This document shows positions 30,417 to 53,429 of a DNA stretch of 64,000 nucleotides, one piece after another. The notes under the pieces are model-generated. The model was not told where the DNA came from. It was given only the letters and a program-made list of their open reading frames with translations, and ran no database searches. The stretch spans positions 9,188 to 73,187 of the forward strand of contig JANQWV010000070.1 of assembly GCA_030729695.1 (NCBI GenBank), read 5' to 3'. Position 1 is the first letter of the stretch. Each line of letters begins with the position of its first letter. The stretch comes from Flavobacteriales bacterium. GTDB lineage: Bacteria > Bacteroidota > Bacteroidia > Flavobacteriales_D > Sanyastnellaceae. Position numbers and translations under genes: made by a program.

Positions 30417-31524
30417 CCGGTCTGTGATCTGAAGCGCCCGCGTCACTTGTTGAATAAGAATTCGCTTGCAACTCTTTGCTATGCAAGACATAATCAATTC
30501 GCAAGCCTAGAAGCGGTCCCCTATAGGTACTTCCAATTCCTTTTCCAGCATCTTGAAAGCTGTCCTCCAAACTTTTCGCTAGACGATTGTATGTATACGA
30601 GATTGGCGTGTCATTAAAATCACCTGCAACGATTACTTTGTGCTTGCACGATTCAATATGTGCCGAGAGCACGTTAACCTGTTGCGAACGCTTGAGTGAT
30701 GAACGATACAATTGAACGAACAACGGTTTGCTCTCATTCTGAATTTCATTCATATCAATATTTTCATCGAAAAGTTGAAGCGATTTCTTCTTCAAGCGAA
30801 AGCTTTGCAAATGCGCATTGTATACACGCACCGTATCACTTCCAACTAAAACATCCATGTAAATACAAAAGTTATTTACCTCATTCTCGAAAGGCACTTG
30901 ACCTTGACTAACAACTGGATAATTCGAAAAAATAACCAATCCAAATCTTCCTCCATCAGAAAGCACATGAGTGGTTCGCTCATGCACCGCATATCCCGAA
31001 AGGATCTCATTTCTCGATTGTTCAGATAAAAAATCTCCACCATTCGTATTCCAATAGCACTCTTGCAGGCAAAGAATATCCGGTTTTACCTTTTGAATTT
31101 CATTCAATATCGCATCCCTATTCTTCTTCGCGTTTTCCCCATCGTAGTAACCCATTAGATGAGTATTGTGGGTCATGACAGTCATTCCAATTCCACCTGA
31201 AGTTTGTTGATTACGAGAATTAAAATTGAAAAACGAGAACAAATCGGGCAATGAAAATGCGAAACAAATACCGAAAGCAATAAGCCATTTCCACTCCTTT
31301 CGGAAAATCATAAATATTGCGGCAATTAAAAACATGAGCAACAGCGGCCAAAAGAAAAGGCCTAAAACACTAAAGAACATGAAAACACTTGGCGTAAAAT
31401 GCGAAGACAAATAAGAAAGCAAGTAAAAGGAAATAACTACCAAACTAAAAAAACGAAAGACAAATCGGACAAACTTATTCCAATGGCTCAACTTCTTTAT
31501 TTCTTTCGCAGGGGATTCCATCAC
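30400..31524 (-). CDS. Endonuclease/exonuclease/phosphatase (EEP) family protein with an N-terminal membrane anchor
   Basis: 374 aa. About four N-terminal TM helices, then the EEP motifs ILCLQE and GASDHRPV. Confidence 0.8.
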   Translation of the reverse strand: MMESPAKEIKKLSHWNKFVRFVFRFFSLVVISFYLLSYLSSHFTPSVFMFFSVLGLFFWPLLLMFLIAAIFMIFRKEWKWLIAFGICFAFSLPDLFSFFNFNSRNQQTSGGIGMTVMTHNTHLMGYYDGENAKKNRDAILNEIQKVKPDILCLQECYWNTNGGDFLSEQSRNEILSGYAVHERTTHVLSDGGRFGLVIFSNYPVVSQGQVPFENEVNNFCIYMDVLVGSDTVRVYNAHLQSFRLKKKSLQLFDENIDMNEIQNESKPLFVQLYRSSLKRSQQVNVLSAHIESCKHKVIVAGDFNDTPISYTYNRLAKSLEDSFQDAGKGIGSTYRGPLLGLRIDYVLHSKELQANSYSTSDAGASDHRPVIVKF

Positions 31525-32342
31525 TTCTCTTTTTGCTGTTCTAAAAACACTTTCTCCTTTGCTGAAAGGCTTTCAAATCCTGAACGCGAGATTTTATCTA
31601 AAATTGAATTCAAGTAATCTTCTTTCAATTTTCTTTCTGCATTAAACTCATCGTCAGTTTGAAATCTAGCATTACTTCGTTTCACGGTAAGCTTTGGAGA
31701 AGGCCTAAACCAAGAGAATATTTTTTCAATCCAATTCATTTGCGCGAATTCATATTTATCCATTAGCATCCAGAACAAACCTCCAATCGCACCACCTAAA
31801 TGCGCGAAAAGTGATAAGTTCTGAGCTTCATAATTCAAGACATCAATTACTTCCAAAAGTAAAAACACTGTCAGGCCTAACCAAAAAGATACTCCTCTTT
31901 TTTCGCTGTTTCCAACATCGAAAAACAGCCAACCTACCCATAGCGATGTTATTCCAGCTGAAGCGCCAATCAAAGAAACTTGGTCTTCAATACATAAAAG
32001 AAAAATCAATCCACCAATTACTCCTGCAATCCAATACTTCAAAGCCTTCAATCCGAAATAGCGATCCTTCGACCAATAAATTAAAAGCATTAATAAAGCG
32101 TAATTCCAAACGAAATGACTGACCTCTGCATGAAAGAAACTATAGGTTAACCAAGTCCAAATCCAAGTGTAAGATTCACCTTTTGTAGAAAAACCTACAA
32201 ACGAATCAAAAGTCGCGATATACGCTGAACCCGAATAATTAACAGAAAGCAACACGACTATTAATCGAATAACAAATCCAAATGCCATTAAGGCACTTAT
32301 GAATTTCAATCCTATTGGTGCGTTGCGAAAACGATTTACCAT
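31521..32342 (-). CDS. Rhomboid-family intramembrane serine protease with a C-terminal helical tail
   Basis: Motifs GASAGITS (Ser) and HLGGAIGG (His). The ATG at 32342 is preferred because the ORF-track start at 32363 is a TTG. The C-terminal tail reads LNSILDKISRSGFESLSAKEKVFLE. Confidence 0.85.
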   Translation of the reverse strand: MVNRFRNAPIGLKFISALMAFGFVIRLIVVLLSVNYSGSAYIATFDSFVGFSTKGESYTWIWTWLTYSFFHAEVSHFVWNYALLMLLIYWSKDRYFGLKALKYWIAGVIGGLIFLLCIEDQVSLIGASAGITSLWVGWLFFDVGNSEKRGVSFWLGLTVFLLLEVIDVLNYEAQNLSLFAHLGGAIGGLFWMLMDKYEFAQMNWIEKIFSWFRPSPKLTVKRSNARFQTDDEFNAERKLKEDYLNSILDKISRSGFESLSAKEKVFLEQQKEK

Positions 32343-33040
32343 GCATTCCCCTTTTTCTGCCAATACTTAAGCAGAAGGTATCCGAAAAGCATTCCACCTA
32401 AATGCGCATAATGGGCTACGTTGTCTCCTGTCGTTTGACGCATGGCCAAAAAGAATTCGATCGCTCCGTATATCATTACGAAATACTTCGCTTTAAGCGG
32501 AATAGGCGGAAACAACAGCATCAATTCTGTGTTCGGGAACAACATTCCAAATCCCAACAACACACCGAATACTGCGCCTGATGCTCCAACTACACCCGTA
32601 TTAATCGCAGAGTACAAATCAACCATTTGGACTTTATACGATTTCCCTTCTTCCAATCCGGTGATCATGACTTGATAAATCTCTCGATCACTCAACACTG
32701 CCATCATCTTCTGTATCTCTAAATAACTAACTCCCATGTGCAAGAAGAAAGCACCAATTCCGCAGGTCATGTAATAAATCACAAAACGCTTTGTGCCCCA
32801 ATAATTTTCCAATGCCGTTCCAAACAAATACAAGGCATACATATTGAAAAATATATGTGTGAAGTCATACTGCGAGTGCATAAACATGTGCGTCACAATT
32901 TGCCAAGGTCTGAAATTCGGGCTGGCAAAATAATATCCTGTTAAGGCGTCGTTCAATCCGGGAACAACAAAACAAGCCAAGTAAATAAGAACATTAATAA
33001 TTATGATGTTCTTTACCGCCGGTGTAAGATTCATTCTCAT
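32336..33040 (-). CDS. Rhomboid-family intramembrane serine protease
   Basis: 234 aa. Motifs HMFMHS, GASGAVFG and HLGGMLFG. Confidence 0.88.
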   Translation of the reverse strand: MRMNLTPAVKNIIIINVLIYLACFVVPGLNDALTGYYFASPNFRPWQIVTHMFMHSQYDFTHIFFNMYALYLFGTALENYWGTKRFVIYYMTCGIGAFFLHMGVSYLEIQKMMAVLSDREIYQVMITGLEEGKSYKVQMVDLYSAINTGVVGASGAVFGVLLGFGMLFPNTELMLLFPPIPLKAKYFVMIYGAIEFFLAMRQTTGDNVAHYAHLGGMLFGYLLLKYWQKKGNAW

Positions 33041-36089: not shown

Positions 36090-36638
36090 CTAATTCAATT
36101 TCTCCAAGTACAACAACGCTTGGGATTTATAGTTCATCCACATCTCTTTATCAAACTCATTTAACTCACCTTTTCTACTTGCGCGTAAAAGAGATTTAAA
36201 AGCTTTATTTTTCGAGTAAGACTCCGAGTGCTCTATCAAGAATAGCAACGCCTTCAATCCAGCAATTCGTTGTGCTTCCTGTTTTACTTTTCCTTCATGT
36301 TTCAGCGCATAATTGATATTCCCGAATAAATAAGCCAACATTAAATCTTCAGTTATGAGGTAATCGTTGTAAGGGCCAACTTCAATATTCACGAGCAGAT
36401 TAGGGTTTTTCGTCACCCATTCCATAACGAAAATACTCGCGGAACTTCGCTCTATCAATTGCTCTGTCGGGGGAGTTGAAATAAGCCATTCAATTAAGTC
36501 TTCAATATTCTTTCTATTCTCTGCAAAAGACTCAGCCCGCTCCCAATGCTCGTCAGCATTAAATGAAGGGCACTTCCGATACTCTTGAGCCATTAAAGAA
36601 AATGGCAATATGAACAGTATCAGAATTATTCTTTTCAT
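36090..36638 (-). CDS. Hypothetical exported protein
   Basis: 182 aa with signal peptide MKRIILILFILPFSLMAQ. No motif recognised. It sits between the saccharopine-dehydrogenase-like gene and ispH with no intergenic space. Confidence 0.55.
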   Translation of the reverse strand: MKRIILILFILPFSLMAQEYRKCPSFNADEHWERAESFAENRKNIEDLIEWLISTPPTEQLIERSSASIFVMEWVTKNPNLLVNIEVGPYNDYLITEDLMLAYLFGNINYALKHEGKVKQEAQRIAGLKALLFLIEHSESYSKNKAFKSLLRASRKGELNEFDKEMWMNYKSQALLYLEKLN

Positions 36639-37945
36639 AATTCTTCTATCGTTTCTACGAATGAAATACCGTAGTTGTGAAGGTCTTGCAACAGAGGTAC
36701 GTAAAACTCTGCGGTCACAGGTATTTGAACCCCGCGTGAAGAAAAATCGCCGTTGAATAAACGATTAACTGCAAAGGCAATAGGCATACCCACTGTCTTG
36801 GACATTGCTGTTTTGAACTCATCATCTCCCTCTAAAACCATAGACGAGGTTAACACATGATTCTTTCCTTGAAACGTGTATCCGAATTTATGCACCATAA
36901 CAATCATATCGCGATCACCTTCTTTCAACACCCATTTTCTCTCGAGTAATTGTTGAAGATGTTGCGCACAAGTAAGCTCTTCATTTTTCAGAGGCTCATT
37001 GCTAAAAATCCCAATCTCATTCAACATATCCGACACCTCTTTGTCCTCATTGTTTATGCTGAAATTCAGACCGAGCAACGATTCAGATAGCTCTGCCCAT
37101 GTTGAAAATTCACCAGCTGGGATTTTGGTATCATCGTTTACAAAACCGTTCTTCACCAAGAAAGACCACCCTTTACAATACCCTTGCTTTCGCAATGTTC
37201 CGCGAACAAGCTTGTTCACTTTTTCAAGTCCATACAACTCGAGGTAATGCACCGAATTTCTGTTTGGGTAAGCGTCATAACGCACCCCATCGCTTGCAAC
37301 AACCGTCTCTACTTCGTCAAACAATTTATAATAAGGAACCATTCTAAGCTTGTTGTTCTCGCGATACATAGCATGTCCGGAACTTCCGGCAAGTATTATA
37401 TTTCTTGGATTCCATGAAATTTTATACCCCCATAAATTGTCATCACTTGCAGGAGCAACAAGCCCTCCTGTATAAGATTCAAAAGATGTAATTTCCGCAC
37501 CTTGACTTTTTAACCTATGAATGATCTCCATAGCCGAGATGTGATCTATTCCCGGATCTACACCCATTTCATTTAAAACTAAAATCCCCTCTTGCAAGGC
37601 AAGTTCGTGCATTGCATTAACCTCGGCACTAACATAACTCGGCGTAAATACATGAACATGAAAATTAATGCAATCTTTTACAACTTCCGCATGCATGAAT
37701 GCTGGAAGCATTGAAATAACCAAACTTGAATGAGCAATCAATTCATGTCGAAACTCTGCGTTTGTCGCATCCCCAGAAATAAAATGAACTTGATTAAGAC
37801 CCCCATATTCCTCTATCCAATGAGATACATTCGTATCGGCAACCACCACACTCCACTTACCTTCCAGAGCTCCTTCCACTAAAAAAGAAACCAAATGGCG
37901 TGCGCTTCTACCTGCGCCGAACAGTATAATTTTCTTCGTTTCCAT
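36635..37945 (-). CDS. Saccharopine dehydrogenase-family NAD(P)-binding protein
   Basis: Start at the ATG at 37945 (METKKIILFGAGRSARHL, Rossmann motif). The C-terminal region is saccharopine dehydrogenase-like. Confidence 0.7.
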   Translation of the reverse strand: METKKIILFGAGRSARHLVSFLVEGALEGKWSVVVADTNVSHWIEEYGGLNQVHFISGDATNAEFRHELIAHSSLVISMLPAFMHAEVVKDCINFHVHVFTPSYVSAEVNAMHELALQEGILVLNEMGVDPGIDHISAMEIIHRLKSQGAEITSFESYTGGLVAPASDDNLWGYKISWNPRNIILAGSSGHAMYRENNKLRMVPYYKLFDEVETVVASDGVRYDAYPNRNSVHYLELYGLEKVNKLVRGTLRKQGYCKGWSFLVKNGFVNDDTKIPAGEFSTWAELSESLLGLNFSINNEDKEVSDMLNEIGIFSNEPLKNEELTCAQHLQQLLERKWVLKEGDRDMIVMVHKFGYTFQGKNHVLTSSMVLEGDDEFKTAMSKTVGMPIAFAVNRLFNGDFSSRGVQIPVTAEFYVPLLQDLHNYGISFVETIEEL

Positions 37946-38061
37946 CGCAAACAAAGTTAACCAAACCAATTAGCTTCCCTTTCTTAAGTTTTTATTTTTT
38001 GGCATAAACTTTTATACAGGTTGAATCATAACTAAATTTACACTCTCAACAGACAAAAGAT

Positions 38062-39261
38062 ATGATTAAAAAAATTACCCTAGTCGCAGTAGCATCGTTC
38101 GCTCTTTCGAATGTTTTCGCTCAAATGAATGCTGTTATTTATTCTGAAGCAGGCGAAAAATTTACGCTCTATCTAAACGGCGAGCCCATGAATAGCACGC
38201 CTCAAGCAAATGTCAAACTTCAAGGTCTAACATCTGAATTCTACCAAGCACGAGTAGATTTTCAAGACGCTGCATTGGCCGATTTCTCAAACAACTACTT
38301 TGCACTTCATCCGGGAATGGAGGTGACTTACCAAGTAAAGAAAAACAAAAAAGGGGAATATGTTCTTCGTTATTACACGGAAAACCCAATTTCTTCGGGT
38401 GCCACAACGAATAACCCTTCCAACGATAACGCGAAAGATTTCGCTGTTGCAGACGATGCTCCCGCTAACACAACTCAAACTCAGAATAACACTGGGACTG
38501 TGAATAGCGGAAATACCAATACCAATACCACAACTACAACAACCGTAACAGGAACGAACACCAAACCTACTACAGGAGGAAACGTTGGTCTGAACATCAA
38601 TGTTGACGGCGTAAACATGGGAATGAACGTCAATGTCAACGAAACCCCCAATGCCACGGGCGGAAGTGTTGGTATGAATGTAAATGCAGATGGGGTTAAT
38701 TTCGGGATGAATGTCAATGTCAACGAAACCAACTCTACAACTACAGGTGGAAATGTTGGGATGAATATCAACGTAGACGGAATGAACATGGGAATTAACA
38801 TGAATGTTCCGAATATGGATGTTCAGACAACCGGAACGACTACAACAACAACGAGAACTACAACTTCTACCTCCTCAAGTAATTCAACGGTTCCTGCTCA
38901 CACAACGCGTCCAAGCGAACCATCGCCAACCCAACCTTCGAACACAACCATTTCCGGAAATGGAAATTGTACTCGATCTATGGACGACGCTAGTTTCGGA
39001 AAAGCAAAACAAACTATCGCAAGTAAAGGATTCGACGAAACGAGGTTGTCAACTGCTAAGCAAGTAGCTAAAGCAAACTGCCTTACAACTGAGCAAATTG
39101 TCGCGATTATGAAAATTTTTGGCTTTGATGAAACGCGACTTGAGTTTGCGAAATATGCTTATGACTATTGCTTTGATAAGAATAACTATTACACCGTAAG
39201 TGAAGGCTTTAGCTTCTACTCTAGTACCGAAGAGTTGATTCAATACATTGAAACGAAATAA
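38062..39261 (+). CDS. Exported DUF4476-domain protein with an Asn/Thr-rich linker and three 29-aa repeats
   Basis: 399 aa with signal peptide ending VFAQ. The C-terminal tandem pattern (FGKAKQTIASKGFDETRLSTAKQVA and IMKIFGFDETRLEFAKYAYDYC) matches what I remember of DUF4476. Confidence 0.7.
   Translation: MIKKITLVAVASFALSNVFAQMNAVIYSEAGEKFTLYLNGEPMNSTPQANVKLQGLTSEFYQARVDFQDAALADFSNNYFALHPGMEVTYQVKKNKKGEYVLRYYTENPISSGATTNNPSNDNAKDFAVADDAPANTTQTQNNTGTVNSGNTNTNTTTTTTVTGTNTKPTTGGNVGLNINVDGVNMGMNVNVNETPNATGGSVGMNVNADGVNFGMNVNVNETNSTTTGGNVGMNINVDGMNMGINMNVPNMDVQTTGTTTTTTRTTTSTSSSNSTVPAHTTRPSEPSPTQPSNTTISGNGNCTRSMDDASFGKAKQTIASKGFDETRLSTAKQVAKANCLTTEQIVAIMKIFGFDETRLEFAKYAYDYCFDKNNYYTVSEGFSFYSSTEELIQYIETK
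38572..38832 (+). repeat. Three imperfect tandem repeats of 87 bp (29 aa) inside the DUF4476 gene
   Basis: The three copies read TGGNVGLNINVDGVNMGMNVNVNETPNA, TGGSVGMNVNADGVNFGMNVNVNETNSTT and TGGNVGMNINVDGMNMGINMNVPNMDVQT. Confidence 0.9.
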
Positions 39262-39263
39262 TT

Positions 39264-40634
39264 ATGAAAAATTGGCTCTACATCTTTACTGCTCTGATTT
39301 TGCTTGGAACGCAGGCATGTCACAACAGTAAACACTACACCAAGCTCGGTCAAAAGCAAGAGGCAGCCGGACTGAATAAAGAAGCTTCTGAAAGTTATTA
39401 TACCGCTTTGTGGAAGAAGCGCGCGAATATTGACGCTCAAATTGGAATGAAGAAAACCGGACAAACGGTTTTAAGCGCCATGCTAAGTGAGTTCAGCCAG
39501 AAAAGCAGTTTTGGAAATAAAAAAGATGCGGTTTATGCATTCATTTCAGCCCGTGACTATCAGGCAAAAATCAAAGGTGTTGGTGTAGAACTTCAAATAC
39601 CCGATTTCTATTTAGGCGATTTTGAGAAAGTAAAAAAGTCATACCTGACTGATCTTTACGAACAAGGAACAAAACTTTTAGAGGACAACAAATTTGCAGA
39701 CGCTGAAGCTAATTTCCATGAAATTGGGATTTTAGATCCAAACTTTAAAGATGCCGGTGAATTAAAAGATATAGCGTACCTCGAACCTATCTATCAAAAA
39801 GGCCTAACTGAATTCGAAGCGAAGCACTACCGCGCTGCGTATAACAACTTTATTAAGGTTGAGGAACGTAAATTAGGATACAAGGAATCGGCAGATCTGA
39901 AGAAGAGATGTCTTGATAAAGGAAAGTATACCATAGCGCTCCTTCCGTTCACCAACGGGACGAATATGCAGGGTAGCGACACCAAAGCAACTGCCTATAT
40001 CCTCAACGCGTTGACTCAGATTAACGACCCATTCCTACAGGTAATAGACAGAGAAAACCTCAACAACATCCTTGCTGAGCAACGCATTCAAATGAGTGGA
40101 ATCTTTTCTGAATCCAATGCAGTTGAAATTGGAAAAATTTCAGGAGCGAAGGCACTTATTACGGGAACTGTTCTTAACCACACGATTCAAAACGGACAAA
40201 TAAGAAAGGTGACTCGCAATGGGTTTGAATCGTATTCTGTCAAAAAAGTCAACGCTGAAGGCAAAACATTTTATGACACTGAATACAAAGCTGTTCAGTT
40301 CGATGAATATTACAACTATGCTGAATCCAACGTTTCGATACAGTACAAAATGACATCCATAGAAACAGCTTCATTGATTAAAAATGATATCTTCACCGAG
40401 AAGAAAAAAGATGAAGTAATCTATGCTATTTATGGCGGGAACACCAACAAACTATTCCCTGCCAATGGCAATGTCGTAAATACGAACATGCGAGATAGAA
40501 ATACGCTTAAGGAAATGCTGAGCGCGCGCAGAAACCTTCGCGATGGCAATGATTTAGCAAATGACTTGTACATTGAGATTGCCAAGAAAATAGCAGATAA
40601 CGTCAAAAATCAAATGCAAACGCTTGTTCCCTGA
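39264..40634 (+). CDS. Lipoprotein with an N-terminal TPR-like helical region and a CsgG/FlgO/LpoB-like alpha/beta domain
   Basis: 456 aa with lipobox-like LILLGTQAC. The segment IALLPFTNGTNMQGSD..LNALTQ..FLQVIDRENLNNILAEQRIQMSG..AVEIGKISGAKALITGTV follows the CsgG-family pattern. Confidence 0.6.
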   Translation: MKNWLYIFTALILLGTQACHNSKHYTKLGQKQEAAGLNKEASESYYTALWKKRANIDAQIGMKKTGQTVLSAMLSEFSQKSSFGNKKDAVYAFISARDYQAKIKGVGVELQIPDFYLGDFEKVKKSYLTDLYEQGTKLLEDNKFADAEANFHEIGILDPNFKDAGELKDIAYLEPIYQKGLTEFEAKHYRAAYNNFIKVEERKLGYKESADLKKRCLDKGKYTIALLPFTNGTNMQGSDTKATAYILNALTQINDPFLQVIDRENLNNILAEQRIQMSGIFSESNAVEIGKISGAKALITGTVLNHTIQNGQIRKVTRNGFESYSVKKVNAEGKTFYDTEYKAVQFDEYYNYAESNVSIQYKMTSIETASLIKNDIFTEKKKDEVIYAIYGGNTNKLFPANGNVVNTNMRDRNTLKEMLSARRNLRDGNDLANDLYIEIAKKIADNVKNQMQTLVP

Positions 40635-42016
40635 TGAAATTATTTTACAAATATTTACTCTTTTTGGGAATCATTCTTTTGAATGCTTGTGGTGGAAAAG
40701 ACTCCGTGAAAACCGTTGTTCCTCCTCCACAACCTAAACCAGAATGGGTATCTACCCGACCCGTAAATTCTTCTTACTACATTGGAATTGCGACATGCTC
40801 TAAAACAACTCAGCCTGCAGATTACCAAGCCATCGCAAAAAAATTGGCCTTGAACGATTTGGCCACTGAAATATCGGTGAAGGTGGAAGGACAAACGTTC
40901 TTCAACACCATGGAGGTGAACAAAGCATTCAGTGAAAGCTTCAGTTCGAATGTCTCAACATCTTCGTCTGAATTATTGGAAGACTACGAAGTTGCTGGAA
41001 TTTGGGAAGACAACGAATTATATGCCATTTATTACAAACTGAACAAATTCGACTATCAATCGAAGAAGGCATTAAAAAAAGAAAACACATTAAGATCCGC
41101 CCTTGACTTTTTGAAGAAAGGAAGAGAAGCTAAAAAATTAGGAAATATTCCTTCCGCTATAGACCTATTCTACCACGGGCTATTTGCTTTAAAGCCCTAT
41201 TGGACAGAGGTGAATCAGATGAAAGACGACAATGGAAATGATATTTTCATTGACAACGAACTGTTCTCTGAAATTCGAGCTGTTTTAGCTGATCTTCGAT
41301 TTGAGACTCCTTTAAAAAATATTGTGCTTTCTTCTTCCAACACCTTTAAAGCCCAAGTTCCTGTTATGATAACCTATAAGGGCGAAGGCGTAAGAGGAAT
41401 TAACGTGAGGTATTCTTATCAGCGCGATAATTATATGAAGCCCAAAACAGTGATGTCTGACAACGATGGGATTATTCTCGCAGATATTGACAACGTTAGC
41501 CTGAAAGCTAAAAACAATTCACTGGAATTAAGTATCGTTATTGATGCCCTTGTGCCGCAAGATTTAGACTCGGATTTGGCTGCCGCAATAATCACCGGCA
41601 TAAACACAGACCAACGTAAAATCCCGATTGAAATTCTTGCTCCAAGTTTTTTTGTGAGTTCAAATGAATTTAAACTTGACGGCACTAAAACTACTACCCT
41701 GGCAGAGATCACAAGAAACACGCTCATCAGCAAAGGAATGAGAATCGCAACCAGCGAAAACTCTGCTGACTACGTTGTATACATCAACACGAACCCTCGT
41801 GCAGGTGAAGACATTCAAGGATTTAAAGTGGGGTATCTCGACGGAAAAATTACCGTAACCGACACCAAAACGACTTCAGCAATTTTCGAATACAGTATTT
41901 CCGGTGTGAAGGGTGTGCAACTTTCGCACGAAAATGCAGTATTAGAAGCATACAAAAAAGTGAGGGAAAGTATAGAGACAGCCCAAGTCAGCGAAATAAT
42001 TAAAATTATTTTGTAA
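40634..42016 (+). CDS. LPP20/FlgP-like lipoprotein with a long C-terminal extension
   Basis: 460 aa with lipobox LLNACGG. The N-terminal domain (PEWVSTRP..YYIGIA..AIAKKLALNDLATEISVKVEG..YEVAGIWED..YAIYYKL) is LPP20-like. Its start overlaps the upstream stop (TGATG). Confidence 0.55.
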   Translation: MKLFYKYLLFLGIILLNACGGKDSVKTVVPPPQPKPEWVSTRPVNSSYYIGIATCSKTTQPADYQAIAKKLALNDLATEISVKVEGQTFFNTMEVNKAFSESFSSNVSTSSSELLEDYEVAGIWEDNELYAIYYKLNKFDYQSKKALKKENTLRSALDFLKKGREAKKLGNIPSAIDLFYHGLFALKPYWTEVNQMKDDNGNDIFIDNELFSEIRAVLADLRFETPLKNIVLSSSNTFKAQVPVMITYKGEGVRGINVRYSYQRDNYMKPKTVMSDNDGIILADIDNVSLKAKNNSLELSIVIDALVPQDLDSDLAAAIITGINTDQRKIPIEILAPSFFVSSNEFKLDGTKTTTLAEITRNTLISKGMRIATSENSADYVVYINTNPRAGEDIQGFKVGYLDGKITVTDTKTTSAIFEYSISGVKGVQLSHENAVLEAYKKVRESIETAQVSEIIKIIL

Positions 42017-42064
42017 GTTTGGCACAATAACTGAAAACAACAATTCAACTAATATCTTGACAAA

Positions 42065-42646
42065 ATGAAAACACGCATTACCCTTTTAGCAATTGCTGCA
42101 ATGACAATGGTTGCTATACCTTCTTGTAAGAAGAACAAAGACGAAGTAAAAACTCCGGACCCAAAAGGAGAAGTTGTAATCAACGAATATTGCTCAGGCA
42201 CTGAATACAAAAGCACTAAAGATGCTTTCCGCTCAACTGCAACTGGTGAGAGCATGGATCGTGAAACGGCTAAGAAAAAAGCTCGTTCAAACGCAATGTC
42301 TGAAATGGGAAAAACAATCAGCGCTACAATGAAAATTGTTGGTGATAACTACGTTAACTCTACTGAAGTAAATAACAAAGAGGAAGTAACTGAGTCTTTT
42401 AACGAGATGGCTCGCACAGTTGTAGATCAAGAACTTCGTGGGTGCATCGAAATCTGTGAGAAATTAACTCAACGCCCTGATGGAACTTATGTAAGTTATG
42501 TTGCTCTTGAGTTAAGCGGGAATACAATTGCAGATGCTTACCAAAACGGTTTGTCTAAAAACGAAAAGTTAAAAGCTGACTACAACTACGAGAAATTCAA
42601 AGAGACTTTCGACAAAGAAATGGAGAAACTTTCTCAAGGTAAATAA
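42065..42646 (+). CDS. Small LPP20-like lipoprotein
   Basis: 193 aa with lipobox AIPSCKK. The stretches RETAKKKARSNAMSEMGKTISATMK, VVDQELRG and YVSYVALEL resemble Helicobacter Lpp20. Confidence 0.5.
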   Translation: MKTRITLLAIAAMTMVAIPSCKKNKDEVKTPDPKGEVVINEYCSGTEYKSTKDAFRSTATGESMDRETAKKKARSNAMSEMGKTISATMKIVGDNYVNSTEVNNKEEVTESFNEMARTVVDQELRGCIEICEKLTQRPDGTYVSYVALELSGNTIADAYQNGLSKNEKLKADYNYEKFKETFDKEMEKLSQGK

Positions 42647-42661
42647 TCTTAAATCCCTTCT

Positions 42662-42689
42662 AAAAGGTCACTTAGGTGACCTTTTTTTT
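42662..42689 (+). terminator. Rho-independent terminator closing the four-gene lipoprotein operon
   Basis: AAAAGGTCAC-TTAG-GTGACCTTTT hairpin followed by a T8 run. Confidence 0.85.
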
Positions 42690-42693
42690 CACC

Positions 42694-44040
42694 ATGAAAT
42701 CAATCCTCACCCTCATATTGGCCCTAGGCTTTTCGGTTGGATTCGGACAATCGAGTCTGAAACTTCATGTTGAAAATATTCCAACACAGAACTCAAAAAA
42801 AGTCTTCCTGGAAGCCTTCGAAAAAGATCGGTGGCATATTCTATCTACTTCCGATTTAGATGCAGCAGGGACAGTTTCAATAAGCTTAATACCTGCACAC
42901 ATTGGCCAATACCGCCTTCGTTTTTCAGGAACAGGCAAGCTCTGGACCGACTTTTACATCAACCCGAAAACACTTCCCAAATCCATTGACCTCACATTGG
43001 ATTTCTCGAAACTAAACGGAGTACCTTCTTCACTTTTCACTTCAACAGAACAATTTGAATATGTTGAACTAACAACACTGTATTCCAATCTTCAAATGGA
43101 ATATGACACTTACAAATCAATCACCCATCCTGCTTTCCTGAACAAGCAAAAAATCATCAATAACAAGACTTTAGAAAAGTCTAAAGAAGGAAAAAAATCA
43201 GAGGTCTATTCCAACTTTGCTCCTCTCTTTTGTCGAAGACTTCCACATGACTTCATGCAATTTGACAGCACAATCTATTTCAAACATTTTCTCGGAAATG
43301 TTGACTACGATGACGATGCAATACTATTTCACTACGCCTTCGTGCGAGGTCTCAACCAATACTTCAATCAACTTTACAAGTCCTATCCAAAAGAATATGC
43401 TCAGAAATTTACAGATGAATTGTTGGGTAGAATGGGGGAAAACGAAGCCGTGAACCAATACCTGCATTCTTTCATTCTGAATAAAATGTTAGACTACAAA
43501 AATGAAGAGGGCCTTTCCTATTACTTGAACAATTACGCCGACGGATGTTCTGATAATACTTCATTCAGTGTAAATACTAAAAATCTCCTTGAATCTCTGA
43601 AGAACTGTGCGCCCGGAAAAAAGGCCGAAGAACTAAAATACCCCAATGCAGAAGGTAAATTAGTTTCATTGGAGGATATTTGTAAGAAAAACAAAATCAC
43701 GCTAGTCATGTTTTGGAGAAGTAATTGTTCGCATTGCGAAAAGTTCCACCCTCAACTTCAAGAGATCTATAAAAAATACCACGAAAAAGGCCTTGAGGTA
43801 TACGCAATCTCCATTGACAAAGAAGAGGCGCCATGGAAAAATCATTTGTCAACACACCAACAACCGTGGATCAATGTTCTTCCCCCCATGGACAAGCGTC
43901 CATATTTAGCGAAACACTATCCTTCGCCCTCCACACCAACGCTTATAGCCCTTGACTCGAATATGAAAGTCATTAGCCGACTCATCATGAGAAGTAAGTT
44001 GGAAAATTTCCTTGAAGAAAATAAGGCTTATTTTGAATAA
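42694..44040 (+). CDS. Exported TlpA-like thioredoxin-fold protein with a large N-terminal domain
   Basis: Start at the ATG at 42694 (MKSILTLILALGFSVGFGQ), because the ORF-track GTG at 42676 lies inside the terminator hairpin. The C-terminal thioredoxin fold carries WRSNCSHCEKF. Confidence 0.8.
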   Translation: MKSILTLILALGFSVGFGQSSLKLHVENIPTQNSKKVFLEAFEKDRWHILSTSDLDAAGTVSISLIPAHIGQYRLRFSGTGKLWTDFYINPKTLPKSIDLTLDFSKLNGVPSSLFTSTEQFEYVELTTLYSNLQMEYDTYKSITHPAFLNKQKIINNKTLEKSKEGKKSEVYSNFAPLFCRRLPHDFMQFDSTIYFKHFLGNVDYDDDAILFHYAFVRGLNQYFNQLYKSYPKEYAQKFTDELLGRMGENEAVNQYLHSFILNKMLDYKNEEGLSYYLNNYADGCSDNTSFSVNTKNLLESLKNCAPGKKAEELKYPNAEGKLVSLEDICKKNKITLVMFWRSNCSHCEKFHPQLQEIYKKYHEKGLEVYAISIDKEEAPWKNHLSTHQQPWINVLPPMDKRPYLAKHYPSPSTPTLIALDSNMKVISRLIMRSKLENFLEENKAYFE

Positions 44041-49655: not shown

Positions 49656-52600
49656 ATGCAGAGAAAATTTTACCTGCTTTTGAGTTTAATTGCCCTTTCA
49701 GTGTCAAGTGTACTTGCACAAGGAAACGGTGGAACTTTGAAAGGAAAAGTCATTGACAAAGAGACGAAGAAGCCTCTTCCTTTCGTGAATGTCGTTCTGT
49801 TTTTGAATGGAAATCTGATTACAGGTGGACAAACAGATCCAGATGGACAATACACCATTAAACCTATTGATCCCGGAACCTACGAGGTTCAGTTCAACTT
49901 TGTAGGTTACCAAACCCAAAGTCAAACTGGAATTCCAATTTCAGCTGGAAAAATTCAATTCGCAAATGCTGAATTAAGTCCAGGTGTTGAAATGAACACC
50001 GTGGAAATCAAGGAATACCGTGTTCCTCTTATCGATAAAGATGGAGGTGCTTCCGGTGGAACCGTTACTCGCGAAGAGTTAGAAAAAATGCCTAGTCGTG
50101 ATGCACTTGGTCTTGCACAAACCGTTGCAGGGGTAAGCTCAGCTGGAACTGGCGGTGGAATTTCTATTCGTGGAGCGCGTACGGGATCTACTTGGGTATA
50201 CATCGACGGAATTAAAGTTCGTGGATCAACATCATTACCAAAATCAGCAATTGAAGAGGTATCTGTAATAACCGGAGGTATTCCTGCAAACATTGGAGAT
50301 GCTACGGGGGGTGTAATTAACATCTCGCTTCGTTCCGCTTCTTCTGAGTATACGGGAGGTCTTGAAGCAATTACCTCAGGTTTCAAAGTTGGAGACAAGG
50401 CAGTTGGTCTTGACACCTATGGATATAATCTATTGGAAGGTTCATTGTCTGGACCTATCCTATTTAGAAAGAAAGCAGATGGATCGAAAGGCAGACCAAT
50501 CCTTGGTTTCTTCCTTTCAGGAAACTATACTGACATTGTCGACGGTGGTCCAACATTCGGTGGTGTTTACCGCATGAAAGAAGATGCTCGTCAAGCCATC
50601 CTGGCTAACCCTTTACGTCAGAATATTCAAGCCGATGGAACTGTAAACGGAGCTTTGTACAATGCTGATTTCCTTACTGCTGACGATTTTGAAAAAATCA
50701 ATACACGCATGAACGTGCGTTCAAGACAAGCAAACGTTGTAGCTAAAATTGACTTGAATGCTTCTGAAGGCGTGACGTTAACATTTGGTGGAACCGCTGC
50801 AATTAGCCGTGGAAATGGTTTCGATTATGGTAACATGCTATCGAACTGGCAGAACAATCAACAAAACACCGGTTTAGACTGGAGAGCATACGCGAAGTTC
50901 GCTCAACGCTTTAAGAACGCAGACGAAGAGTCTGGAAGTTCTAACTTGAAAAATGTGTTTTACCGTATTCAAGCCGATTACTCTAGTTCTTACAACCGTT
51001 CTGAGGATGCGCAACACGGCAATAACCTATTCAGATATGGACACGTTGGAACATTTGATATCTTCCGCCGACCTTCTTACACACTGAACAGCTCGGGCAA
51101 TTACTTCGAGCAAAACGGTTGGCAAGATGTAAATGTGAACTTCACACCGTCTGAATACAATCCTGACTTAGCATCTATTACCAGTCAATTCTTCAACCTC
51201 TTCAACACTAACCCTTATGTTACTGAAGTGTTGAACGGAACTGACGGAATCATCACAGACAGTCAATTCTTCGACCCTACTATAAACGACTTTACTTCTG
51301 AAACTGAACAAATCGGAGATTCTCCTTATTCTTCAATCACCAATATTCAAGGTGGAAACGGTTTAGTAAACGGCCAACAGCCTGCGGGAACTTACGGTTT
51401 GTGGTCTCATATTGGTGCTAAATCAAACAATTACAGTGTATTCCGCAACAATCAATTCCGTATTTCTGGGTCGGGATCTGCCGATATCGGAGACCACGCC
51501 ATTGAAGTTGGATTCGAATTCGAACAACGCAAAGACGCAGGATACTCAATTGCGCCTATTGGATTGTGGCAATTGGCACGTCAGTACGCTAACTACCATA
51601 ACCAAGAATTGAATACAGATGCACCTCAGTACTTCAATAACGGAACATATACTTACATCGATTACAGCAATCTCGTTGGTACAGGTCAATTCGAATTCGA
51701 TTACAACCTTAGAACAGCTTTAGGTTTGGATCCTAACGGAACAGATTTCATCAACACTGATGGTCTAAGTCCTGATTTCTTGACTGTCGACATGTTCGGA
51801 GCAAACGATTTATTAAATCAAGGTAATGCCGTTGTGACTTATTATGGTTACGACCACAGAGGAAATTTATTAGGCCGCAAGCCATCACTTGACGATTTCT
51901 TCTCTGAGCGTTACACCTTAGGTAACGAGTCTTATTATACACGTGCAGTAGGAGCTTTCGAACCAGTATATATCTCAGGATATATCATGGATAAATTCGC
52001 GTTTGACGATTTGATTTTCAACGTGGGTCTTCGTATTGACCGCTACGATGCGAACCAATACGTTCCTAAAGACCCTTATGTAATCAGTGAGGCATTTACA
52101 GTGGGTGAGGTTGACTTCGACAGCTTTGGAACTTCACGCCCTTCTAACATCGGCGACGACTTCGTAGTATACGTTGACGATATTCGCAACCCAACGGCTA
52201 TTCAAGGTTACCGAGATGGCGACAACTGGTACAACGCACAAGGTACTTTGGTTACCGATCCATTCACAAGCGTTGCTGCTGGAGGAAAAATAAATCCATA
52301 CTTAAGTGTTGATCCAGATGCTGCTCTTACAAGCAAAGCATTTAAGGAATATACTCCAGCTGTGAATTTCATGCCTCGTGTAGCTTTCTCTTTCCCTATC
52401 TCGGAAGAAGCTTTGTTCTTTGCACATTATGATATCTTAACTCAACGTCCAACTTCAAGTAACCGTTTCAATCCGGTTGATTACTTGTTCATGGAAAACA
52501 GAAACGTATTGATAAGCAATCCGAACCTTCGTCCTGAGAAAACAGTTGACTATGCACTCGGATTCCAACAAGTACTTTCAAAAACATCTTCTATTAAAGT

Positions 52601-53417
52601 TGAAGCATTTTATCGCGAGTTACGCGACATGATTCAAGTTCGTCGATTCAATGGAGCTTATCCTAGTACTTATAGCGCCTTCGGTAACTTAGACTTCGGT
52701 ACAGTTAAAGGTTTGACATTAACCTATGATTTAAGAAGAACTGGAAATCTATGGATGAAGACCTCTTATACCCTTCAGTTTGCTGATGGCACAGGTTCTA
52801 CAACTCAAACACAATTAGCTTTAATTAACGCAGGTCTTCCTAACTTACGTACAGTATCACCTTTCAATTACGATCAACGTCACCGTATCGTGACAACTGT
52901 TGACTACCGTTACGGAGAAGGAAAAGAGTACAACGGTCCAGTATGGTTCGGCAAACAAATCTTCGCGAACACAGGGGCTAACCTTATCGCAAACCTTGGT
53001 TCTGGAACTCCATATACTGCTCAAGTATTCCCTACTCCAATTACTGGTGAGTTGAGTCCTACTACAGCAGGTGGTATCAACAGTGCTCGCCTTCCATGGC
53101 AGTTCACAGTTGATATGAACTTCGATAAAAACTTCAGTCTTGCCTTCGGTGGTGAAGGTGATAAGAAAAAAGCGGCTAACTTAAATGTATATCTATGGGT
53201 GACTAACCTATTGAATACACAAAACATTTCAAGTGTTTACCGCTTTACTGGAACACCTGATGACGACGGATATTTAGCTGCTGCTCAATACCAAAACGTA
53301 ATCAACACACAAAACTCACCATCTTCATTCAGAAACTACTACAGTATGTACGTAAACAACCCTTACAACTTGGGTTCACCACGTCAGATTCGTTTAGGGG
53401 TAAGATTTGATTTTTAA
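49656..53417 (+). CDS. Oversized TonB-dependent-receptor-like outer-membrane protein (CarboxypepD_reg + plug + barrel)
   Basis: 1253 aa with a signal peptide. CarboxypepD_reg-like stretch GKVIDKETKKPLPFVNVVL..TDPDGQYTIKPIDPGTYEVQFNFVGY. Plug-like stretch ISIRGAR..YIDGIKV..IEEVSVITGGIPANIGDATGGVINI. The C-terminus (RQIRLGVRFDF) ends with an aromatic residue. Confidence 0.85.
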   Translation: MQRKFYLLLSLIALSVSSVLAQGNGGTLKGKVIDKETKKPLPFVNVVLFLNGNLITGGQTDPDGQYTIKPIDPGTYEVQFNFVGYQTQSQTGIPISAGKIQFANAELSPGVEMNTVEIKEYRVPLIDKDGGASGGTVTREELEKMPSRDALGLAQTVAGVSSAGTGGGISIRGARTGSTWVYIDGIKVRGSTSLPKSAIEEVSVITGGIPANIGDATGGVINISLRSASSEYTGGLEAITSGFKVGDKAVGLDTYGYNLLEGSLSGPILFRKKADGSKGRPILGFFLSGNYTDIVDGGPTFGGVYRMKEDARQAILANPLRQNIQADGTVNGALYNADFLTADDFEKINTRMNVRSRQANVVAKIDLNASEGVTLTFGGTAAISRGNGFDYGNMLSNWQNNQQNTGLDWRAYAKFAQRFKNADEESGSSNLKNVFYRIQADYSSSYNRSEDAQHGNNLFRYGHVGTFDIFRRPSYTLNSSGNYFEQNGWQDVNVNFTPSEYNPDLASITSQFFNLFNTNPYVTEVLNGTDGIITDSQFFDPTINDFTSETEQIGDSPYSSITNIQGGNGLVNGQQPAGTYGLWSHIGAKSNNYSVFRNNQFRISGSGSADIGDHAIEVGFEFEQRKDAGYSIAPIGLWQLARQYANYHNQELNTDAPQYFNNGTYTYIDYSNLVGTGQFEFDYNLRTALGLDPNGTDFINTDGLSPDFLTVDMFGANDLLNQGNAVVTYYGYDHRGNLLGRKPSLDDFFSERYTLGNESYYTRAVGAFEPVYISGYIMDKFAFDDLIFNVGLRIDRYDANQYVPKDPYVISEAFTVGEVDFDSFGTSRPSNIGDDFVVYVDDIRNPTAIQGYRDGDNWYNAQGTLVTDPFTSVAAGGKINPYLSVDPDAALTSKAFKEYTPAVNFMPRVAFSFPISEEALFFAHYDILTQRPTSSNRFNPVDYLFMENRNVLISNPNLRPEKTVDYALGFQQVLSKTSSIKVEAFYRELRDMIQVRRFNGAYPSTYSAFGNLDFGTVKGLTLTYDLRRTGNLWMKTSYTLQFADGTGSTTQTQLALINAGLPNLRTVSPFNYDQRHRIVTTVDYRYGEGKEYNGPVWFGKQIFANTGANLIANLGSGTPYTAQVFPTPITGELSPTTAGGINSARLPWQFTVDMNFDKNFSLAFGGEGDKKKAANLNVYLWVTNLLNTQNISSVYRFTGTPDDDGYLAAAQYQNVINTQNSPSSFRNYYSMYVNNPYNLGSPRQIRLGVRFDF

Positions 53418-53429
53418 TTTTTTGAGAAA

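Follow-up and report, generated by a model that had tools for sequence, protein, structure and literature searches.

A conserved, nested cluster of LPP20-type and CsgG/LpoB-fold lipoprotein genes in Flavobacteriales, possibly encoding an outer-membrane-tethered scaffold

The four-gene cluster

A stretch of 64,000 nucleotides (nt) from an uncultured freshwater Flavobacteriales bacterium (contig JANQWV010000070.1, positions 9,188 to 73,187; the window) carries four co-directional genes, designated g1 to g4, all of which encode exported proteins, three of them lipoproteins. A contig of a metagenome-assembled genome (MAG) from Lake Mendota is 99% identical over g2. The junctions are tight: a 2-nt gap separates g1 from g2, g2 and g3 overlap by 1 nt (TGATG), and a 48-nt spacer precedes g4. 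An intrinsic terminator-like hairpin with a folding energy of -14.2 kcal/mol (z = -3.4 versus shuffles) closes the cluster; it was not listed by a generic terminator scan and was confirmed by sequence reading and folding (Table 1).

g1 starts with a type I signal peptide (amino acids (aa) 1-20, ending in SNVFA and followed by QM), while the other three products have a lipobox Cys. Cys19 of g2 (LGTQAC) is invariant or nearly so in 65 orthologues, Cys19 of g3 (LLNACGG) is invariant in 55 orthologues, and Cys21 of g4 (AIPSCKK) is invariant or nearly so in 18; many of the orthologues of the three have textbook lipoboxes. An earlier account of this DNA, made from the letters alone (the sequence-only reading), had described the same layout; its junctions and terminator are borne out by the open reading frame (ORF) calls and by folding, and its export signals by the conservation of the lipid-bearing Cys residues. 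Its family calls, namely DUF4476 for g1, a TPR region plus a domain of the CsgG/LpoB clan for g2 and LPP20-type domains for g3 and g4, hold at superfamily level, with g4 below the LPP20 cut-off and backed by profile comparisons. NCBIfam gave no usable match for any of the four proteins. The families as such are already known, since NCBI names the g2 orthologues 'CsgG/HfaB family protein' and uses 'LPP20 family lipoprotein' as an orthologue name in this gene set.

Table 1 Features of the cluster and promoter-like boxes in the window.
Feature	Position	Strand	Remarks
g1 ORF	38062-39261	+	399 aa
Three tandem 28-29-aa Asn/Val units of g1 (GGNVGxNxNVDGVNMGMNVNV)	38572-38817	+	each an amphipathic strand-turn-strand
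75-nt repeat copies of g1	38572-38646, 38656-38730, 38743-38817	+	72-76% DNA identity; spacing 84 and 87 nt
DUF4476 domain of g1	38980-39243	+	three conserved Cys
g2 ORF	39264-40634	+	456 aa
Long β-hairpin of g2 (aa 312-352, tip NAEGK)	40197-40319	+	model secondary structure
g3 ORF	40634-42016	+	460 aa
TAAGTTTG, Bacteroidetes-type -7 box (TAnnTTTG)	42014-42021	+	overlaps g3 stop; 44 nt 5' of g4 ATG
g4 ORF	42065-42646	+	193 aa
Intrinsic terminator-like hairpin, AAAAGGUCAC-UUAG-GUGACCUUUU then UUUU	42662-42689	+	10-bp stem, 4-nt loop
Example TAnnTTTG boxes near ORF starts	15149, 20511, 24785, 44046, 48232	+	
Example TAnnTTTG boxes near ORF starts	8343, 13690, 34833	-	

Gene order and the nested gene set

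In the one-genome-per-species contigs of GTDB (185,579 species genomes) g2 has 242 relatives, and the loci of the best 80 of these (the close set) were scanned by hmmsearch with profiles of the four proteins; the denominators for g3 and g4 count the loci that have room for the gene on the contig. The named g2 relatives all belong to Flavobacteriales or to unclassified Bacteroidota, bar a few MAG records with implausible names. g3 lies directly downstream of g2 in 73/73 loci, g4 follows directly downstream in 62/62, and g1 is found upstream of g2 in 65/72, being missing from 7/72 loci that keep g2 to g4. The co-conservation for which the sequence-only reading had suggested a survey is thus present, and the synteny far exceeds chance. 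Two more remote loci extend it: in L081, whose g2 is 36% identical, the g2-g3-g4 triad is kept in another genomic context and g1 is absent, and in L082, whose g3 is 27% identical, all four genes occur in the same MutL-IspH-saccharopine dehydrogenase context as in the window.

A distant set comprised 80 metagenome loci around remoter g4 relatives, obtained with a three-sequence g4 alignment as the query and scanned with the same four profiles. Here g3 stands just upstream of g4 in 36/49 loci, g2 is present in only 12 of the 31 g3-g4 loci (absent in 19/31), and g1 in 6 of the 10 loci that contain g2 (absent in 4/10). The architectures are nested (g4 alone, g3-g4, g2-g3-g4 and all four genes), and the g3-g4 pair occurs alone in many Bacteroidota-like contigs. 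This nested distribution argues that g4 or the g3-g4 pair is the core of the set, to which g2 and then g1 were successive additions.

Two further arrangements were seen. A second, very divergent pair of genes lies on the opposite strand, about 2 kb from a g2-less g3-g4 pair, in L123 (8496-10479, minus strand) and also in L124 and L127; in L123 it encodes a weakly g3-like protein of 351 aa and one of 307 aa that matches LpoB (23.9 bits), CsgG (18.4 bits) and Lcl_C. Such a pair may be an independent LPP20-like plus LpoB/CsgG-like module. Beside the g4 relatives without g3 of L085-L092 (e.g. L088, 6001-12404), the next gene encodes a secreted protein (about 350 aa) that faintly resembles g4, followed by proteins of 884, 337 and 278 aa without a Pfam match, and these neighbours may represent a different set of partners for the g4 core.

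g3 and g4, lipoproteins of the LPP20 type

g3 matches Pfam LPP20 (PF02169) with 30.5 bits against a cut-off of 25.9, and 55/55 orthologues match as well. The best PDB sequence match of its profile is 4kzs, entitled 'LPP20 lipofamily protein' (E 1.4e-4), which we take to be HP1454. The structural model of g3 (predicted local distance difference test, pLDDT, 83.4) consists of the LPP20 domain (aa 36-132), long helices that form a helical hairpin (aa 138-185), two Ig-like β domains (aa 195-346) and an α/β domain similar to LptE, GNA1162 and PelC (aa 355-459). Foldseek matches of this C-terminal domain are LptE, GNA1162, PelC and HpaA, and FlgT is also among the matches of g3. Outside the signal peptide g2 and g3 have no detectable homology, hence their C-terminal α/β domains are not recent paralogues.

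g4 scores only 17.8 bits with Pfam LPP20, under the cut-off of 25.9. The g4 family aligns with the LPP20 module of g3 (its N-terminal 150 residues) with an hhalign probability of 92.9-95.3%, the top PDB match for a profile of 60 diverse g4 relatives is Lpp20 of Helicobacter pylori (5ok8, E 0.008), and 19 of these 60 family members match Pfam LPP20 (best E 5.8e-8). Judged from these profile comparisons g4 is probably a divergent LPP20 member; it also has a weak FlgT_N match (E 0.046). It is the most conserved gene of the cluster, with 62-78% identity in relatives whose g2 and g3 are about 45% and 30-45% identical, respectively. In a library of 1.84 billion proteins the g4 family comprises 793 clusters (at 50% identity) at E<=1e-3, nearly all of them 180-200 aa in length.

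The 3' end of g3 overlaps a box of the form TAnnTTTG, which we take to be the Bacteroidetes -7 promoter element. The box is found at or adjoining the g3 stop in 52/70 orthologous loci, down to 43% g2 identity, and its 'TA' is that of the TAA or TAG stop codon of g3 (loci L001-L080). Exact matches to TAnnTTTG are rarer in the window than in shuffled sequence (36 versus a shuffle mean of 60), and many of them sit a few to about 30 nt 5' of ORF starts (examples in Table 1), as expected of a real promoter element that is avoided elsewhere. The conserved box at the g3 stop is thus a probable internal promoter, from which g4 would also be transcribed alone, and this agrees with g4 being the core of the set and perhaps its most abundant subunit. 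A more fitting description of the cluster than a plain four-gene operon is g1-g2-g3(-g4) with an added promoter for g4.

g1, a DUF4476 protein with a conserved amphipathic hairpin

The C-terminal part of g1 (aa 307-394) matches Pfam DUF4476 (PF14771) with 76.7 bits, the gathering cut-off being 22.5, and so do 31/31 orthologues. In the alignment of these 31 proteins the signal peptide is followed by an N-terminal β-rich domain of about 85 aa (to about aa 110), a poly-Thr tract, at least one strand-turn-strand unit, an acidic stretch, a second poly-Thr tract and the DUF4476 domain. The Asn/Val repeat noted in the sequence-only reading is real and consists of three 75-nt copies in the window; Tandem Repeats Finder missed this 84-87-nt repeat, which was detected by a direct-repeat search. 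One unit is conserved in 31/31 orthologues; hydrophobic positions (V/M/I) strictly alternate in it with polar ones (N/D/K) about a GG turn (V-x-M-x-M-x-V-GG-V-x-M-G-I-x-V-x-V), and poly-Thr tracts lie on both sides of it. There is a single unit in most lineages, two or three in the clade of the window and about five to seven in L022 and L023. Because the copy number varies, the expansion of the repeat is lineage-specific, and it is the single amphipathic hairpin that is conserved. In L022 (5818-6996) and L023 (4918-6129), which belong to a sister clade at 63% identity, g1 has 5-7 copies of another unit, GGQVGMNISAKDGQN, before the canonical hairpin, which implies that the repeat region expands independently in different lineages. 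The g1 profile found no match in the PDB, and the DUF4476 literature deals with eukaryotic ciliary proteins only and gives no function for the family.

g2, a TPR plus CsgG/LpoB/PelC-fold lipoprotein

g2 scores 36.2 bits with Pfam CsgG (PF03783; cut-off 20.8), and 65/65 orthologues match this family. The match spans aa 218-305 and covers profile positions 6-100 of 210 only, that is, the N-terminal α/β half. Pfam LpoB stays under its cut-off (19.1 versus 22.3 bits) in the g2 of the window and matches 52/65 orthologues at E<=0.01 (best E 9.8e-7); TPR families match about 28/65. The AlphaFold monomer model, built from 65 sequences (pLDDT 88.8), is made up of a purely helical, TPR-like domain (aa 20-220) and an α/β domain of the CsgG/LpoB/PelC fold (aa 221-456). 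In Foldseek searches of the PDB the best E-value belongs to CsgG (3e-5), but with a target template modelling (TM) score of only 0.35. PelC fits better (TM 0.54-0.61), including the PelBC transporter entry 9h80, and further matches are FlgT, HpaA, GNA1162 and CT253; the probability is 1.0 for CsgG, PelC, FlgT, HpaA and GNA1162. A profile of the 65 orthologues searched against PDB sequences retrieved TPR proteins only, and no CsgG, LpoB or PelC.

CsgG forms a nonameric ring with a central constriction, and its defining membrane element is the two amphipathic hairpins per subunit that make up the outer-membrane barrel; one face of these hairpins has a hydropathy near +0.9. The model of g2 has one long β-hairpin, whose length is conserved and whose two faces are both polar or charged, with conserved Tyr, in the column composition of the 65 orthologues; either face averages about -0.7 to -1.5 in hydropathy, and charged residues make up 28-38%. 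In the monomer model this hairpin is therefore a candidate contact or oligomerisation arm and no membrane hairpin. The sequence-only reading had looked to the predicted structure of g2 for a channel-forming element, and what the structure contains is a single polar hairpin on a PelC-like domain in place of two membrane hairpins.

These results bear on the curli-like route that the sequence-only reading had put forward. In such a route g2 would be a CsgG-type outer-membrane channel that exports g1, the Asn/Val repeats of g1 would form a surface amyloid, and g3 and g4 would replace CsgE and CsgF. The above-cut-off CsgG matches of g2 and all its orthologues would agree with it, yet they stop at profile position 100 of 210, and the 65-orthologue profile finds no CsgG in the PDB. 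CsgG leads the Foldseek matches by E-value, but its TM-score of 0.35 compares with 0.54-0.61 for PelC, which is not a pore, and the monomer model has a single long hairpin with both faces polar or charged. The Asn-rich strand-turn-strand repeats of g1, with their perfect hydrophobic/polar alternation, and the position of g1 directly upstream of g2 in 65/72 relatives would suit an amyloid client; however, g1 is absent from 7/72 close and 4/10 distant g2 loci and is thus dispensable in several lineages, the Asn/Val unit ranges from one to about seven copies and is single in most orthologues, and a folded DUF4476 domain takes up half of g1. Pfam scans of g1-g4, of three ORFs upstream and of five downstream gave no match to CsgE, CsgF, CsgA or CsgB. 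We consider curli-like export very improbable. g2 was rejected as a functional member of the curli channels because of the single polar hairpin and the lack of CsgE/F/A/B in or around the cluster; the shared fold is retained.

LpoB has a long disordered N-terminal linker and acts on the UB2H domain of the penicillin-binding protein (PBP) PBP1B. As a protein recalling LpoA/LpoB, g2 might activate or organise a PBP or a hydrolase at the outer membrane, with g3 and g4 as co-factors. The LpoB matches of 52/65 orthologues, the 19.1 bits of the g2 of the window, and the published description of HP1457 as an LpoB homologue and of HP0018/Cj0089 as linked to peptidoglycan hydrolases (PMC11394524; PMC3100323) point this way. 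Yet 19.1 bits lie below the cut-off of 22.3, a folded TPR domain and no long disordered linker follows the lipid anchor, and no PBP or hydrolase gene is linked to the cluster in the contexts examined. Moreover, g2 is an accessory part, being absent from 19/31 g3-g4 loci, and its distribution is narrow (242 matches in 185,579 species genomes). A role as a regulator of peptidoglycan enzymes is in our view unlikely, and g2 was not accepted as LpoB itself, given the sub-cut-off Pfam score, 11.7 bits against a cut-off of 110 for the LpoB family TIGR02722, and the folded TPR-like N-terminus.

The structural fit to PelC (including 9h80) and the presence of a TPR-like domain within the same protein could also be taken to mean that g2 is a fused PelB-TPR and PelC ring that funnels exopolysaccharide to a porin encoded elsewhere. 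However, genes for a glycosyltransferase, a porin or anything else connected with polysaccharides were missing from the cluster and its surroundings in all contexts examined, and the proteins conserved alongside g2 are of the LPP20 type, for which no part in polysaccharide export is known. We give this reading the same very low weight as curli-like export. g2 was likewise rejected as FlgO, the check that the sequence-only reading had named: Pfam FlgO gave no match at E<=0.01 in any of the 65 orthologues, and the neighbourhoods examined contain no flagellar genes.

Localisation of the lipoproteins

In Bacteroidetes, an acidic stretch after the lipid-bearing Cys is the signal for export to the cell surface. 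At least two acidic residues within the five positions after this Cys occur in 0/64 g2, 0/55 g3 and 2/60 g4 orthologues, and the near-absence of the stretch argues that the proteins are kept on the periplasmic side and not exposed at the surface. The Bacteroidetes O-glycosylation motif D[ST][AILVMT] has one occurrence only, in g3, and lends no support to any localisation.

A proposed periplasmic scaffold

We propose that the cluster encodes a hetero-oligomeric scaffold that is attached to the outer membrane on its periplasmic face and has no secretion pore, and we put the probability of this proposal at about one half. The folds involved are those of outer-membrane-anchored periplasmic lipoproteins that bind each other and often polymerise. 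The core would be formed by g4, a small lipoprotein of the LPP20/SHS2 type, and g3, in which a paralogous LPP20 module is joined to a helical stalk, two Ig-like domains and an LptE/GNA1162-like domain. g2 would be an adaptor added in this Flavobacteriales lineage, with the TPR-like domain serving as a platform that binds partners and with the polar hairpin probably packing on β-sheets of the LPP20 proteins or of adjacent copies of g2, in the manner of FlgO with FlgP in the Vibrio H-ring. g1, Sec-exported and soluble, would be peripheral, an optional partner or client that could dock by its conserved amphipathic hairpin(s). With what appears to be its own promoter, g4 may be made in excess of the others. 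The assembly would be oligomeric, possibly ring- or lattice-like, and would organise or stabilise the outer membrane and the periplasm; stabilisation or organisation of the envelope is the most economical guess for its role. Flagellated bacteria may have recruited such a module as FlgO/FlgP. A scaffold for an envelope machine had been the second option of the sequence-only reading; it survives as the best reading, and the curli-like, PelC-like and LpoB-like readings are ranked below it. The export signals, the families and folds, the synteny, the nested distribution and the lack of hydrophobic membrane hairpins are observed, while the physical complex, its oligomeric state, the periplasmic orientation and the scaffold role in the envelope are inferred.

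Several points weigh against the scaffold. The structural models are of monomers, which cannot show oligomers, and the neighbouring genes are housekeeping genes that give no functional hint. In the ring-forming subset of FlgP and FlgT proteins, a β-hairpin insert between the SHS2 helix and the second strand makes the inter-subunit sheet (PMC12222027). At this site some 26 residues of g3 (aa 93-118) are near-invariant and are modelled with a pLDDT of only 35-43. The near-invariant segment aa 83-112, also of low confidence in the model, may be helical by alignment to Lpp20, whose corresponding segment is described as helical (PMC11756786). The deletion of Lpp20 in H. pylori has no motor or barrier phenotype (PMC11756786), hence the Helicobacter analogue provides no clear function. 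Both the orientation of the lipoproteins (periplasmic or surface) and the membrane that holds them (outer or inner) rest on general rules.

In a different arrangement g1 itself could be the membrane-spanning element: the hairpin units of several g1 copies would form an oligomeric outer-membrane β-barrel on rings of the g2 and g3/g4 lipoproteins. The three units per copy in this lineage could contribute to such a barrel, and one g1 domain could lie on each side of the membrane. We regard this as only slightly less improbable than the curli-like route; if true, Flavobacteriales without flagella would have a kind of outer-membrane conduit or display device that has not been described before.

Other observations in the window

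A thioredoxin-like protein (AhpC/TSA, Thioredoxin_8) is encoded at 42694-44040 (plus strand), 5 nt past the U-run of the terminator, and its N-terminal 300 or so residues are without a Pfam match. This protein is far more divergent than its surroundings, being 81% identical in the MAG that is 99% identical and 47-57% identical in most other close relatives, where g4 and purA are 92-99% identical.

On the other side of the cluster, a 182-aa small secreted protein without a Pfam match (36090-36638, minus strand) is translationally coupled to a saccharopine-dehydrogenase-like gene. The two genes adjoin the cluster divergently in most relatives, down to the locus with 27% g3 identity (L082), and are probably part of a conserved genome backbone rather than functionally linked. 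For the saccharopine-dehydrogenase-like ORF (37943-37969 region, minus strand) the listed start is a TTG at 37969. Its first listed codons contain a TAACTTTG box (37952-37959, minus strand), so that translation probably begins at the ATG of 'METKK' near 37945; the transcript would then be nearly leaderless.

Further away, two adjoining and slightly overlapping genes of the rhomboid family lie at 31521-33040 (minus strand), the downstream one with a C-terminal DUF6576. At 49656-57641 (plus strand), a 1253-aa ORF with CarboxypepD_reg and Plug matches, and hence like a TonB-dependent receptor, is followed by a 1403-aa ORF without a Pfam match at E<=0.001.

Comparison with known systems

LPP20-type lipoproteins and lipoproteins of the CsgG/LpoB fold are best known from the flagellar outer-membrane rings (FlgP, FlgO and FlgT) and from the Helicobacter antigen operon. 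To our knowledge the Flavobacteriales have no flagella, and no flagellar genes were found in the neighbourhoods examined. In the literature searched, we found no description of the four genes as a conserved, nested set, of the fusion with a TPR domain, of a DUF4476 protein with a conserved amphipathic hairpin as their partner, of a g4 promoter within the set, or of counterparts to the Helicobacter lpp20 operon and to FlgO/FlgP in a phylum that has no flagella. Searches on LPP20, CsgG and Bacteroidetes and on GNA1162/DUF799/DUF4810 yielded no functional study of such a module, and a Flavobacterium paper on the BAM (β-barrel assembly machinery) complex mentions CsgG in a reference only.

The closest precedent is the lpp20 operon of H. 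pylori, which encodes HP1454, a protein of three domains the first of which is Lpp20-like, and HP1456, that is, Lpp20 itself (PMC11756786), together with HP1457, described as an LpoB homologue (PMC11394524). HP1454 resembles g3, HP1456 resembles g4, and HP1457 and its Campylobacter jejuni orthologue Cj0091 resemble the C-terminal domain of g2. The Helicobacter-type triad is thus present in one operon at the level of domains, as judged from sequence profiles, and the comparison drawn in the sequence-only reading with this operon and with FlgO/FlgP proved apt (PMC11756786, PMC11394524). The statement that the combination had no described function stands in part: the lpp20 operon is a precedent, and no mechanism is known for that operon either. 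The N-terminal domain of g2 has its counterpart in the C. jejuni cj0089-cj0091 operon, where Cj0091 is encoded with a TPR lipoprotein of 453 aa (PMC3100323); this protein, Cj0089/HP0018 (about 450 aa), is linked to the LpoB-like HP1457 and to peptidoglycan hydrolases (PMC11394524; PMC3100323). The differences are considerable. Helicobacter belongs to another phylum, the similarity is detectable at profile level only, and the gene order is not the same. In the window the TPR and LpoB/CsgG-fold domains are fused in g2, g3 has additional Ig-like and LptE-like domains, and a DUF4476 partner is added. The Helicobacter proteins interact with flagellar FlgP and FapH, and the Flavobacteriales have no flagella.

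CsgG and Caulobacter HfaB share with g2 the lipid anchor, an above-cut-off Pfam CsgG match and the α/β core fold. They differ from it in the half-length of its profile match, in its one polar hairpin as opposed to two membrane hairpins and in its added N-terminal TPR domain; and the curli partners CsgE, CsgF, CsgA and CsgB are missing from the cluster. A 'CsgG family' annotation in Bacteroidota should accordingly not be read as curli or amyloid secretion. PelC, which forms a dodecameric ring (PDB entry titles), as well as LpoB, GNA1162/DUF799, HpaA and LptE, have a similar small α/β sandwich domain of outer-membrane lipoproteins; this likeness is at fold level only (8-20% identity), and no pel, lpt or pbp genes are linked to the cluster.

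The flagellar rings offer the nearest picture of what such proteins can build. FlgP, Lpp20 and FlgT have the SHS2-type fold in common (PMC12222027), and FlgO and FlgP of Vibrio, both lipidated, touch via β-sheets and assemble into concentric, outer-membrane-anchored rings of 58-fold symmetry (bioRxiv 10.64898/2025.12.02.691832). As in Vibrio FlgO/FlgP (with FlgT) and the Campylobacter FlgP basal disk, in the window a gene for a CsgG/LpoB-type lipoprotein stands beside a gene for a lipoprotein of the LPP20/SHS2 fold, and FlgT is among the Foldseek matches of both g2 and g3. FlgO and FlgP are outer-membrane anchored, contact the sheet of the partner by a hairpin or sheet and polymerise to rings, and something similar is proposed for the set in the window. 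On the other hand, g2 has no Pfam FlgO match, g4 has only a weak FlgT_N match, and a flagellar context is lacking. As a conserved nested module in Flavobacteriales without flagella, the g2-g3-g4 triad suggests a general envelope module that predates flagella or is independent of them, and which flagellar motors may have recruited. A cultured carrier of the cluster would offer a flagellum-free setting for learning the function of Lpp20-type complexes.

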